Assembly (NCBI GenBank): GCA_030390025.1
Contig: JASTWF010000180.1
Span: forward strand, 372,001 to 436,000
Length of the DNA: 64,000 bases
Direction of reading: 5' to 3'
Origin: Squalus acanthias
Taxonomy: Eukaryota
The translations under genes were made by a program, and so were the position numbers. The notes under the pieces were generated by a model. It was given only the letters and a program-made list of their open reading frames with translations. It was not told the origin of the DNA and searched no databases. This document shows, piece by piece, positions 4,826 to 61,989 of this stretch (position 1 is the first letter of the stretch; every line of letters starts with the position of its first letter).

Positions 4826-5291
4826 ATGATGTCGGCGATTTCTCTCGGCCTACTGCTTGGTTACGTATCCAGTGCGTAGCTATAACTGTTCCGAATTGTT
4901 CCAATCTTTCTGTTTCGCTGTGAGTCCCTCTTGGCGTTACAGAGCTAGGAGTCACCACCTTAATTGATGCTTCTTTACTTTTATAGGTGTCCTGTCGGAT
5001 GTGGTGTTGACTCAGCCAGAGGCAGAGACCAGGCGTCTCGGACAGTCCCTGAGACTGACCTGTAAAACCAGCGGGTTCAATCTTGCCAGCTATCGGATGT
5101 ACTGGTACCGACAAGGCCCCGGGAAGGGAATGGATTGGCTAGTTTGGTACGATAGTAAAGACAACCACCAGTACCATCAAGAAGTTAGAGCACGAGTTAC
5201 TGCTTCCAAAGACCTTTCAAACAATATCTTCGCTTTGGGTATCAAGGGATTGACACTGGGAGACAGCGCCACTTATTATTGCGCTCAGAGT
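4826..5291 (+). CDS. V1: IgM-VH-like V gene segment (leader 4826-4871, V exon 4987-5291), apparently functional
   Basis: Leader [15 protein letters not shown], donor A|GTGCGT, acceptor ttatag|GT. Mature [49 protein letters not shown]...[10 protein letters not shown] with both Cys and the FR2 Trp intact. Confidence 0.92.
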
Positions 5292-5330
5292 CACAGTGAT
5301 ACAGGTCAGACCCAGACTTGTACAAAAACA
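5292..5330 (+). other. 23-RSS of V1
   Basis: CACAGTG + 23 nt + ACAAAAACA. Confidence 0.95.
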
Positions 5331-5395
5331 GAAAAGAGGAAATGCAGCATTTTCCGCCATCATCAAACACCAATAAATCCACTGTTGACAGCAGT

Positions 5396-5665
5396 TCATA
5401 GAAACAAAAAACATTCGGCCCATTATGCCTGTGCTGGCTCATTCAAAGAGCTATTCAATTAGTCCCACTCTCCTACACTTTTCCCATAGCCCTGTATTTT
5501 TTTCTTTTTCGAGTATTTACCCAAATCCCTTTTGAAAGTTATCATTGAATTTGGATCCACCAGTCTTTCAGGCAGTGCATTCCAGCCCATAACAACTCGC
5601 TGCGTAATATTTTTATCCTCAAGTCGCCTCTGGTTCTTTTGCCAATTGCCTTAACTCTGTGTCAT
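5396..5665 (-). mobile_element. CR1-type 3' end fragment downstream of the V (present in each unit)
   Basis: catagaaac...cattcggcccat...ttttgaaagttat...gcagtgcattccag, homologous to 2915-3190. Confidence 0.7.
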
Positions 5666-5667
5666 TC

Positions 5668-5788
5668 ACCTGAAACTATATAACTCTGTTTCTCTCTCCA
5701 CAGATGCTGCCTGATCTGCTAAACATTTCCAGCATTTTCTGTTTTAATTTGAGGTTTCCAGCATCCGCTGTATTTTACTGTTGTTTCC
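5668..5788 (+). mobile_element. Short shark-type interspersed repeat, probably a Penelope-like terminal fragment (present in each unit)
   Basis: cctgaaac..taactctgtttctctctccacagatgctgcctga(c/t)ctgct...tttccagcatccgc motif; assignment is from recall. Confidence 0.45.
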
Positions 5789-57548: not shown

Positions 57549-58020
57549 ATGAGGTCGGCGATTTCTCTCGGCCTGCTGCTTGGTTTCGTGTCCAGTGCGT
57601 AGCTATAACTGTTCCGAATTGTTCTAATCTTTCTGTTTCTCTGTTAGTCCCTGTTGGGGGGTGTTACAAATCCAGGAGTCGCTTCACCATAATTAATGCT
57701 TCTTTACTTTTACAGGTGTCCAGTCGGATGTGGTGTTGACTCAGCCAGAGGCAGAGACCAGGCGTCTCGGACAGTCCCTGAGACTGACCTGTAAAACCAG
57801 CGGGTTCGATCTTAGCAGCAATTGGATGTACTGGTACCGACAAAGCCCCGGGAAGGGAATGGATTTGCTAGTTTTGTACCACAGTAAAGACAACAAGCAG
57901 TACGATCAAGAATTTAGAGAACGAGTTACTGCTTCCAAAGACCTTTCAAACAATATCTTCGCTTTGGATATCAAGGGATTGACACTGGGAGACAGCGCCA
58001 CTTATTATTGCGCACAGAGT
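57549..58020 (+). CDS. V14: IgM-VH-like V segment, V8/V10 paralog (leader 57549-57594, V exon 57716-58020)
   Basis: Open frame; CDR1 [17 protein letters not shown]; ends YYCAQS. Confidence 0.9.
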
Positions 58021-58059
58021 CACAGTGATACAGGTCAGACCCAGACTTGCACAAAAACA
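58021..58059 (+). other. 23-RSS of V14
   Basis: CACAGTG-23-ACAAAAACA. Confidence 0.95.
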
Positions 58060-61000
58060 GAAAAGAGGAAATGCAGCAGTTTCCGCCATCATCAAACACC
58101 AATAAATCCAATGTTGACAGCAGTTCATAGAAACAAAAAACTATACAGCACAGAAAGGGGCCATTCGGCCCATAATGCCTGTGCTGGCTCATTCAAAGAG
58201 CTATTCAATTAGTCACACTCTCCTACACTTTTCCCATAGCCCTGTATTTTTTTCTTTTTCGAGTATTTATTGAATTCCCTTTTCAAAGTTATAATTGAAC
58301 TTGGTTCCACCAGTCTTTCAAGCATTGCATTCCAGACCATAACAACTCGCTGCGGAATATTTTTATCCTCAAGTCGACTCTGGTTCTTTTGCCAATTGCC
58401 TTAACTCTGTGTCCTTCACATGAAACAATTTAACTCTGTTTCTCTCTCCACAGATGCTGCCTGACCTGCTGAGCCTTTCCAGCATTTTCTGTTTTAATTT
58501 CAGGTTTCCAGCATCCGCAGTATTTTGCTTTTGTTTCCATGTTTTTGTACTCTATGCCTCTACTTATAAAGGCAATGATCCAGATTTACTTTACAACAGC
58601 CTTTTCAACTGGTATTGCCACGTTCAAAGACGGGTGTAGCTATACCCTGTTGTAACACCCCATTTAAAATTGTACCAAATAGTTTATATTGCCTCTCCTC
58701 ATTCTTCCTACCAAAATGAATCACCTCAAACTTCTCTGCATTAAATTTCCTCTGCCGTGTGTCTGGCCATTTCATCAATCTGTCTATATCGTCCTGAGCT
58801 GTGTTACTATCCTCCTCACTGTTCACTAGATTTCAGAGTTTCGTGATATCTGAAAACATTGAAAGTATGCCCCTTACACACAAGTCCAGGGCATTACTAT
58901 AAAGATCAAAACGAGCAGTGCCCCCAACACCGAACACTGGAGCACACCACTGCACACTTCCTTCCAGTCAGAATATCAACCGTTCACCACTATTCTGCGT
59001 TCTGCACCTCAGCTAACTTCGTGTTCCCGCAGCGACTGTCCCTTCGTTCATGGGATGCAGCAAGGCCAGCATTTATTGTCCATCCCTAATTGCCCTTCAG
59101 AAGGCGGTGGTGAGCCGCCTTCTTGAAACGCTACAGTCCGTGTGATGAAGGTACTCACACAGTGCTGTCAGGGAGGGAGTTCCAAGATTTTGACCCAGCG
59201 ACGATTAAAGATCGGCGATATACTTGTATGTCAGGATGATGTGTGCCTTCGAGGGAAACTTGGAGGTGTTGTTGTTCCCGTGCGCCTGCTGCCCTGGTCC
59301 TTCTAGGTGTTAGAGGTGACGGTTTTGGGAGGTGCTGCCGAAGAATCCTTGGTGAGTTGCTACAGTGCATCTTGTAGATGGTACGCACGACAGCCACGTT
59401 GCGCCGGTGGTGGAGGGAGTGAAGGTTTAAGGTATTGGATGGGGTGCCGATCAAGCGGGCTGCTTTGTCCTGGATGGTGTCGAGTTTCTTGAGTGTTGTT
59501 GGAGCTGAACTAATCCAGTAAAGTGGAGAGTATTCCATCACACTCCTTACTTGTGATTTGTAGATGGTGGAAAGGCTTTGAGGCTTCAGGAGGTGAGACA
59601 CTCGCCGCCAAATACCCTGCCTCTGACGTGCTCTTGTGGCCACAGAATTTATGTGGCTGATCCAGTTAAGTTTCTGGTCAATGGTGATCCCCAGGATGTT
59701 GATGGTGGGGAATTCGGCGATGGTAATGCCGTTGAATGTCAAGGAGAGTTGATTAGACTCCCGCTTGTTGGAGTTAGTCATTGCCAATGTTAACTGCCAC
59801 TTATCAGCCCAAACCTTAACATAAGAACATAAGAACATAAGAACATAAAAATAGGAGCAGGAGTAGACCATTCGGCCCTTCAAGCCTGCTCCGCCATTCA
59901 ATGAGATCATGGCTGATCTTCAGCCTCAACTTCATTCACCAACCCTATCGCCAAACCCCTTGATGCCCTTACTAGTCAGAAATCTATCAACTTCTGTTTT
60001 GAATATACCCAATGACTGTGCCTCCACAGCCCAGTGGGCTAGAGAATCCAAAGATTAACCATCCTCTTTGTGATGAAATTTTTCTCATCTCAGTCCTGAA
60101 TGGCCTATCCTTTATCCTGTGGCTGGAGCCCCTGGTTCTAGACTCCCCAGCCAAGAGAAACATTCTCCCAGCATCCACCCTATCAAGCTCTGTAACAATT
60201 TGGTAGGCTTCAATGAGATCCCCTCTCATTCTTCTGAATTCAAGAGAATGCAGGCCTAGTTAACTCAATCTCTTCTCATACAACAGTCCCGGCATCCCAG
60301 GAATCAATCTCGTGAACCTTCGTTGTACGCCGTCTATGGCAAGTATATCCTTCCTTAGGTAAGGTGACCAAAATTGTACACAGTACTCCAGGTTTGGTCT
60401 CACCAAGAACCTATATAATTGGAGTAAGACTTCTTTACTCCTGTTCTCAAATCCTCTTGTAATGAATGCCAGCATACCATTTGCCTTCCTAATGGCTTGC
60501 TGCACCTGCACATTCACTTTCAGTGACTCATGTACAAGGACACACAGTACCCTTTGAGCACCTGCATTCCCCAATCTTTCACCTATCATGAAATTTCTAT
60601 TTTTTCTACCAAAGTTGATAACTTCACATTTATTCACATTATGTTCCATCTGCCATGTTCACGCTCACTCAGTGAGCCTGTCGAGATCCCCTGGAAACCT
60701 CTTCACATCCTCTTCAAAACTGACACTGCCACCTAGCTTTGTACTATCAGCAAATTTGGAAATATTACATTTAGTCCCCTCATCCAATTCATTGATATAC
60801 ATTGTGTATAGCTGGGACCCAAGCACCGATGCTTGCGGTACAGCACCAGTCACAGCCTGCCATCCTGAAAAAGTCCGTTTATCCCTACTCTTTGTTTTCT
60901 GTCTGTTAACTAATTCATAATCCATGCGAGTATATTACCCCCAATTCCATGTGCCCTAATTTTGTTCACCAACCTCTTGTGTGGGACCTTATCGAAGGCC

Positions 61001-61519
61001 TTCTGAAATTCCAAATACACCACTTCTTCCGGTTCCCCTTTGTCAACTCCACTAGTCACATACTCACAGAACTACTATAGATTTGTTAAACAGGAGTTCC
61101 CTTTCTAAATCCATGTTGACTCTGTCCAATCTTACTATTAATTTCTACGTGCCCAGTTATTGAATCCTTTATAATAAATTCCAGCGTCTATCTGAACGTC
61201 GTCCAGATCTTGTTGGATGCGGCCATGGACTGCTTCATTATCTGAGGAGTTGTGAATGCTACTGAACACTGTGCAGTCATCAGACCTACGTCAATAATGA
61301 GCCATTGTAAAGGCACAGTTTGTGTTTCGGTGGATGCTGTCACGTGATTGCAGTCGACCTCGGTTGCATGCAACCAACAGCTGGCGACTTCAAACCCGCC
61401 CCGTTCTGACTTTTGCATAAAGCCCCATAAGTGAGGTTCGGTTCCAACAATCCAGGACCTGCGTTTCCCACTGAGTGACTGAAGGAACGGCTGCCTAATT
61501 TAGCCAAATGCCCAGAAGC

Positions 61520-61989
61520 ATGAGGTCGGCGATTTCTCTCGGCCTACTGCTTGGTTTCCTATCCAGTGCGTAGCTATAACGGTTTCATATTGTTCCAATC
61601 TTTCTGTTTCACTGTTAGTCCCTCTTGGGGGGCGTTACAGAGCTAGGAGTCATCACCATACTTAAAGCTTCTTTACTTTTATAGGTGTCCTGTCGGATGT
61701 GGTGTTGACTCAGCCAGAGGCTGAGATTAGGCGTACTGGACTTTCCCTGAGACTGACCTGTAAAACCAGCGGGTTCGATCTTGGCACCGGCTGGATGTAC
61801 TGGTACCGACAAAACCCCGGGAAGGGAATGGATTGGATAGTTTGGTACAAGAATAAAGACCTCAACGAGTACCATGAAGAAGTTATAGAACGAGTTACTG
61901 CTTCCAAAGACCTTTCAAACAATGTCTTCGCTTTGGGTATCAAGGGATTGACAATGGGAGACAGCGCCACTTATTATTGCGTACAGAGT
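61520..61989 (+). pseudogene. V15: most divergent IgM-VH-like V; open frame but RSS heptamer inactivated (leader 61520-61565, V exon 61685-61989)
   Basis: EIRRTGLSLRLTC...WIVWYKNKDLNEYHEEVIERV; heptamer reads AACAGTG, losing the CAC required for RAG cleavage. Confidence 0.8.

Follow-up and report, generated by a model that had tools for sequence, protein, structure and literature searches.

A 29-copy array of IgM-type heavy-chain V genes in the T-cell receptor alpha/delta locus of Squalus acanthias, probably serving TCR delta

[quoted passage not shown] The array comprises 29 copies, of which 15 lie in the window that was analysed, a 64-kb stretch of contig C911 (C911:372001-436000 of assembly G000, JASTWF010000180.1) in a genome of 3.7 Gb. 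Very probably, these genes rearrange to joining (J) segments of TCR delta, where they likely take the place of V-delta in a chain that pairs with TCR gamma. They are, in a broad sense, TCR-delta-resident VH genes of the VH-delta/TAILV kind.

Several lines of evidence support this assignment. First, the array is embedded in the TCR alpha/delta translocon. A locus map of the 863,720-base contig, complete except for 2 kb, gives the order IgM-type constant (C) exon, TCR V genes, V0 (a separate V gene at the start of the window), array, diversity (D) segment of delta, J, C-delta, J and C-alpha. The IgM-type C exon lies at 4.6 kb, upstream of the array. Next, between 23 and 363 kb, come TCR alpha/delta-type V genes, of which 46 are near-full-length and the rest are fragments. 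The array spans 376.8 to 519.4 kb, with 14 copies past the end of the window. Beyond it lie one 8-nt D with 12/23 recombination signal sequences (RSSs) at C911:557898 (557.9 kb), which is the sole D-delta found; J-like segments, numbering 18 ahead of C-delta and 115 from there to C-alpha in a census by motif that includes broken segments; C-delta at C911:582958 (583 kb), the only C-delta match in the genome, with a transmembrane exon and with 56% and 43% identity to the C regions of the shark delta-type models P0115 and P0010; and C-alpha at 782 kb. The region C911:557898-576400, from D-delta to the J segments, holds its 18 J-like segments in repeated sets alongside the one D-delta. The array stands upstream of D-delta, J-delta and C-delta and in the same orientation. 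Because no V gene was found between the array and D-delta, and no immunoglobulin heavy-chain (IgH)-type J or C downstream on C911, the array is the D-proximal, last V block of the translocon. No 5' RSS, JH or CH was found downstream of the array, which does not have the V-D-D-J-C-mu minicluster organization, with a WGxG J, of shark IgM genes; true clusters of that kind were seen for two other VH genes of this genome, L005 and L123.

The 15 window copies are near-identical, all on the plus strand and spaced 3948-4159 bp apart. Each has a 46-nt leader exon, a 115-121-nt intron, a V exon and an RSS with a 23-bp spacer; the leader protein reads MRSA or MMSA...ISLGLLL (MRAA in one copy), and GT donor and AG acceptor are present at the leader intron in 14 of 15. 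The RSS heptamer is CACAGTG in 12 copies, CACATTG in two and AACAGTG in one. With leader, frame and CAC heptamer intact, rearrangement and expression look possible for 13 of the 15. All 29 family matches of at least 90% fall on C911; over the stretch searched, their identity to copy 4 ranges from 90 to 99%, and the next best DNA matches are IgM VH genes at no more than 75%. The array has expanded recently, through tandem duplication of an approximately 4-kb unit. Large repeat blocks within it are 98.7% identical over 8.1 kb and 99.5% identical to a neighbour over 21.8 kb; the latter, which contains four copies, could be an assembly or haplotype duplication. No repeat of at least 30 nt was found inside the inter-copy spacer that was tested.

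Second, the V genes are of IgH type by sequence. Homologue searches returned four orthologues. Two, P0010 of catshark (XP_038644089.1) and P0006 of basking shark (XP_078425937.1), are gene models that include J-delta and C-delta; the other two, P0012 and P0013 from two bamboo sharks, are modelled as fused to a TCR V. In trees of 47 and 39 rows over 90-98 columns, these orthologues and eight array copies form one clade (support 100/97), which persists (97/91) after positions 42 and 49-52 and the last three columns (105-107) are dropped. The clade falls inside the IgM-type VH group with support of 92/90 and 91/90, below the level starred in the trees, and far from TCR V. Its union with IgW V was rejected (p-AU 0.0012), and judged from sequence the affinity of the array appears to be with IgM rather than IgW. 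An IgM-VH-derived scaffold, as proposed in a preliminary description of the window, is therefore borne out by the trees. The array is nevertheless distinct from the V lineages of the IgM and IgW clusters, as seen from the clade support and from its confinement to C911, and shares 59-62% amino-acid identity with the best IgM VH and 68-76% DNA identity with the IgM VH of the same genome. The clade is sister to VH of the chimaera Callorhinchus (93/91 and 97/86) rather than to shark IgM VH, a position that reflects either an old split or a long-branch effect. No named TAILV protein was among the homologues returned, a phage search gave no match, and among the best 60 hits of a PDB sequence search engineered antibody and nanobody chains were present and a shark delta chain was absent.

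Third, one sequenced junction joins the family to J-delta. Eight public runs were mapped, as contigs, on copy 4, with their RNA status only guessed; the run search gave no matching run on record as RNA, and all shares were under 0.2. In record 9 of run X3, a contig of 156 nt, family V accounts for 62 nt (one difference) and is followed by an end matching J-delta: its last 26 letters equal the J at C911:569199 with no mismatch, and the next best J has five. The junction is in frame, reads CARSSGTYDKL and needs no D bases. The 23-bp spacer of the V RSS is compatible with a 12-bp-spacer RSS, and this contig carries the corresponding rearrangement to a delta J. In run X2, a contig (record 9) has a leader spliced to a V exon and is 92-95% identical; the copy at C911:446655 shows the same numbers of differences, 5 and 15, and the 10 differences that are visible all match that copy and five others, while over the two spans IgM VH do not exceed 69% and 79%. 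Run X1 contains one unjoined family contig of 167 nt with 11 differences. Runs X6, X7, X4, X5 and X11 gave IgM-type pieces (the longest X6 piece, 81% alike, was left unassigned). No JH junction occurred among the family contigs of the eight runs, a sample far too small to exclude use with IgH. The RefSeq models P0010 and P0006, which are predictions only, join the orthologues to C-delta. The array V genes, too, would presumably be spliced to C-delta and expressed with it. The locus map and the V-J-delta join thus uphold the earlier proposal that these genes serve a TCR.

The residues of the domain interface offer a more mixed picture. Positions follow the IMGT scheme and were counted from the conserved residues Trp41 and Cys104 rather than assigned by numbering software. 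Rows of light-chain and V-beta genes that have indels in framework region (FR) 2 are out of register, and only their position 42 was used. The motifs of the preliminary description are real and recur across the 15 window copies: an exact 13-residue motif in eight, an 11-residue motif in 10, RRLGQ in 12 and GDSATYYC in all, with V exons ending in AQS (five), AHS (four), VQS (four) or VQR (two). In the window, position 42 is Y in 13 copies, C in one and H in one, G49 and M50 are invariant (15/15 each), and position 52 is W in 12 and L in three. Over all 29 copies, the counts are Y42 27, G49 27 (R49 in two), M50 26, L50 3, D51 29, W52 23 (L52 in four, C52 in two) and R106 none. The description had named the sharing of WYRQ, GMDW and CAQ by ordinary IgM VH as a finding that would refute it, and these VH do not share them. 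In the same genome, 35 IgM-type VH loci were retrieved and 30 parsed; position 42 is V in 23, F in three, I in two and Y in two, L50 is universal (30/30), M50 and D51 are absent, and R106 is present in 20 of 28 that are readable. Tyr at position 42 was seen in none of seven IgW V genes, in 39 of 41 parsed TCR alpha/delta V genes on C911 (46 examined) and, read by eye, in all 10 V-gamma genes found in 100 kb on C8. Among 107 VH-type FR2 motifs in 130 retrieved proteins, five have Tyr, all from this lineage, and 102 have another residue.

These comparisons sustain part of the remodelled pairing surface that had been proposed. Y42 follows the TCR pattern and is present in all four orthologues. 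M50 and RRLGQ are absent from the orthologues, which have L or P at position 50 and xPG or VAG in FR1, so neither can be counted as interface remodelling. Similarly, the loss of Arg106, where the orthologues have Q or S, is no evidence of remodelling because this position is rebuilt at joining, and the one junction seen reads CAR. On the sequences compared, Y42 is the only lineage-wide TCR-type change, with M50, D51 and RRL specific to this species.

A mechanism can be suggested on this basis. An array V joined to a delta J likely replaces V-delta in an ordinary two-domain delta chain, which would pair with a gamma chain; we favor this form of the product because the array has no supporting V cassette and J-delta supplies FGxG. 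Tyr42 goes together with Phe118 in the V domains of TCRs and light chains, and Val42 with Trp118 in VH domains. A VH joined to J-delta would gain Phe118 (FGxG) instead of Trp118 (WGxG), and V42Y is for this reason likely compensatory, restoring TCR-type packing at the interface with V-gamma. Y42 may accordingly owe its presence to selection for V-gamma pairing, and the balance tips slightly toward V42Y being adaptive. Arg106 at the base of complementarity-determining region (CDR) 3 bridges an Asp of JH; because J-delta lacks this Asp, Arg106 likely drifted. The 29 copies would be expected to widen the germline choice of CDR1 and CDR2, which hold most of the variation in the array (pN, nonsynonymous differences per site, 0.18 versus 0.04 in frameworks; synonymous change is raised too). 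Because at least one array V has been seen joined to a delta J, the array likely gives gamma-delta T cells antibody-like binding sites.

Several findings weigh against this account. The V-J-delta junction is a single contig of depth 6 in one of eight runs with a guessed RNA status, and 30 of its 94 loose letters are visible, with the splice to C-delta beyond that span. Y42 has been lost from two array copies (to C and H) and W52 from six. Two VH genes in complete IgM clusters, L005 (C3620:78356) and L123 (C29:8298966), also carry Y42, which is therefore not exclusive to TCR use. Finally, an excess of replacements in the CDRs was not seen: pN/pS (pS, synonymous differences per site) is 1.18, with an interval of pN-pS that includes zero (in 27 of the 29 copies, 21 distinct), and selection for the expansion is consequently unproven.

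The last two of these findings bear on whether the genes, while used by a TCR, acquired Y42 and the other residues as neutral founder changes, with the array a by-product of unequal crossing-over. We give this an appreciable, though less than even, chance. It fits the confinement of M50, D51 and RRL to this species, the occurrence of Y42 in two of 30 IgM VH and the near-identity of the 8.1-kb and 21.8-kb blocks, as well as the CDR ratios just given. On the other hand, Y42 is kept in the four orthologues, from three other shark groups, in the face of a different residue in 102 of 107 VH-type FR2 motifs, and FR2 has the lowest pN/pS of the array (0.47). The neutral account concerns the adaptive step only and is compatible with the assignment to the TCR-delta locus.

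It is improbable that the array mainly supplies TCR-alpha chains, by direct joining of V to J-alpha, for pairing with TCR-beta. The 23-bp spacer of the V RSS would fit the 12-bp-spacer RSS of J-alpha, the junction seen needs no D bases, and nurse shark V segments are common to alpha and delta according to passages of PMC5931798. Yet that junction is to a J upstream of C-delta, and D-proximal V genes and VH-delta are used by delta in other vertebrates (passages of PMC3457774). The join to J-delta likewise speaks against TCR-beta as a partner, which had been proposed earlier.

Very unlikely, too, is the proposal that the array domains work unpaired, in the manner of camelid VHH, the V of IgNAR or the outer V of NAR-TCR and TCR-mu. 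In passages of PMC12591594, the FR2 hallmarks of VHH at positions 42/49/50/52 are given as FERF, FERG, YQRL and YERW, so that Tyr42 is shared with two of them; L52 in four copies, C52 in two and R49 in two point the same way. The array consensus is YGMW, however, with G49 in 27 of 29 copies, E or Q49 in none, M or L50 in all 29 and R50 in none, which disagrees with the VHH motifs and with the unpaired reading offered in the preliminary description. Nor does the array have a second, supporting V with its own D and J before D-delta, as NAR-TCR would, and the J-delta in the observed junction is an ordinary one. NAR-TCR and VHH resemble the array in placing an antibody-type V on a non-antibody scaffold; the array differs from them in having no supporting cassette, no IgNAR-type V and no E/Q49-R50. 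The NAR-TCR V of P0006 was far from the array in a quick-mode tree from which most TCR V rows were left out. That the array is an orphan or IgH-serving VH set, or inflated by misassembly, is scarcely credible: the IgM C exon at the start of C911 places IgM clusters nearby and the 21.8-kb block could be a haplotype duplication, but that exon lies upstream of the array, 13 of the window copies are intact, the copies diverge to between 90 and 99% identity with copy 4, and a V-J-delta junction exists.

With the array assigned to TCR delta, its closest known counterparts are V genes of IgH type in other TCR loci. In nurse shark, TAILV is reportedly used with TCR but not with IgH constant regions (work ascribed to Deiss, 2019). 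Like the array, the TAILV and "Ig-TCRd V" models resemble IgH V genes and lie in the TCR alpha/delta translocon, just upstream of C-delta. Passages of PMC12227049 (Flajnik et al. 2025) describe IgH as being in linkage with TCR alpha/delta and name TAILV; Table S1 of that paper gives the order IgM, TAILV, "IgWVTCRD", TCRA for a catshark scaffold and seven "Ig-TCRd V" rows before TCR-alpha C for stingray, so that the models it lists number one to seven compared with 29 in the array. We take P0010 to be the catshark "IgWVTCRD" row from its name, content and scaffold size, as the table has no accession. The comparison with TAILV is by position and description, and the catshark TAILV row fits V0 better than the array. 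VH-delta genes are known across vertebrates, including sharks (passages of PMC3457774 and PMC7615758). Those of Xenopus, birds and platypus are, like the array, VH-type V genes in TCR delta, and the platypus gene is likewise the most D-proximal V (passages of PMC3457774); VH-delta is defined, however, as indistinguishable from Ig VH, whereas the array can be told from same-genome IgM VH by DNA identity and Y42. The array and the VH-delta of these animals were probably recruited independently. Trans-rearrangements of shark IgM and IgW V to TCR delta (Criscitiello 2010, according to passages of PMC3457774, PMC5931798 and PMC6795676) also yield a chimeric VH-J-delta-C-delta product; array V genes differ in sitting in cis in the TCR locus without an IgH D, J or C of their own. 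Thus, an IgH-type V in a shark TCR alpha/delta locus is already known, and the copy number is unusually large. Neither this array nor V42Y in a TCR-resident VH turned up in the literature, although the closest papers, beyond the reach of the search, may hold such a description. What is new is the 29-copy expansion, the affinity to IgM rather than IgW and Y42 as a conserved TCR-type mark.

The V0 gene (1111..2011 of the window, plus strand; leader 1111-1156, V exon about 1672-1972, RSS with 23-bp spacer 1973-2011) is a separate IgH-like V gene unrelated to the array and single-copy in the genome. It has an IgW-like FR1 and an IgH-like RSS spacer. Its WYRQ had already been described; unmentioned at that time was a +1 frameshift in FR1, caused by one extra G in the run of G near 1728-1731 (real or a sequencing error). 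Use of another acceptor, at 1679, would leave FR1 open but altered. In the trees, V0 is a long branch outside the clade of delta-resident VH, although its union with the clade was not rejected (p-AU 0.11). Its position corresponds to that of the catshark TAILV row relative to the C-delta-linked V (PMC12227049 Table S1), and it may be a better positional candidate for the TAILV orthologue than the array.

The array copies in the window, all on the plus strand, are as follows. Copy 1 (4826..5330; leader 4826-4871, V exon 4987-5291, RSS 5292-5330) is intact, and the coordinates of the preliminary description prove exact, with the V exon of this copy starting at 4987 and the coding sequence of copy 15 ending at 61989. 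Also intact are copies 2 (8769..9278; V exon 8935-9239), 4 (16858..17366; V exon 17023-17327; the reference for read mapping), 6 (25147..25657; V exon 25314-25618; C at position 42), 7 (29107..29615; V exon 29272-29576), 8 (33240..33750; V exon 33407-33711; L at position 52), 9 (37211..37719; V exon 37376-37680; identical in protein to copy 7), 10 (41344..41854; V exon 41511-41815; identical in protein to copy 8), 11 (45319..45828; V exon 45485-45789), 13 (53416..53924; V exon 53581-53885; H at position 42) and 14 (57549..58059; V exon 57716-58020; L at position 52). Copies 3 (12897..13404; V exon 13064-13365; one codon deleted after CDR2) and 12 (49446..49956; V exon 49613-49917) have the heptamer CACATTG. 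Copy 5 (21193; 21019..21525) has an open V exon (21182-21486) and an intact RSS, and is likely a pseudogene in which an insertion of about 200 bp has destroyed the ATG of the leader. Copy 15 (61520..62028; open V exon 61685-61989) is likely unable to rearrange because its heptamer is AACAGTG. About 235, 182 and 111 bp upstream of array leaders (for example, that at 16858) stand short sequence words: TACGTCA and TTTTGCAT, which are CRE-like (resembling the cAMP response element) and octamer-like, upstream of five of five leaders checked, and the E-box-like TCACGTGA in two of five. The DNA upstream of array leaders is unlike that of IgM VH.

Other receptor loci of this genome add to the picture. 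L005 and L123, each with V, D, WGxG J and C-mu, have the FR2 WYRQVPRQRLEF (Y42, R49, L50, F52), which is nearer to a VHH-like or altered-pairing surface than the FR2 of the array. Germline-joined VDJ, known for sharks, were seen at the IgM loci L001, L003, L004, L008, L119, L131 and L135. L112 and similar matches on C29, C210 and C3620 are V genes that fall with the supporting V-delta of NAR-TCR in basking shark. Genes of this type are scattered among IgM clusters and were not found on C911, so that any NAR-TCR cassette would need to be brought to the single C-delta over a distance. The 100 kb of the TCR-gamma locus that was examined (L155-L164, C8:145.12-145.22 Mb) holds 10 V genes, five of which form one recently expanded family with about 7-kb spacing; it is possible that this family co-expanded with the array. 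Two TCR-beta-like C exons, L141 and L165 (C3311:1073k and 1014k), are 41% identical and oppositely oriented; the V-beta-like genes with them occupy both strands.

Altogether, the array implies that the Ig-type share of a delta V pool can be large and encoded in cis, without depending on trans-rearrangement. It also makes the question of how a VH adapts to a gamma partner directly testable, offering one conserved interface change, many natural variants, and both IgM VH controls and V-gamma from the same genome. Finally, we raise the tentative and rather doubtful idea that V42Y, which fits Phe118 and V-gamma, was the change through which a pan-shark V lineage of IgM origin became domesticated for TCR delta, and that the 29 copies constitute the dominant D-proximal repertoire. 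[quoted passage not shown]

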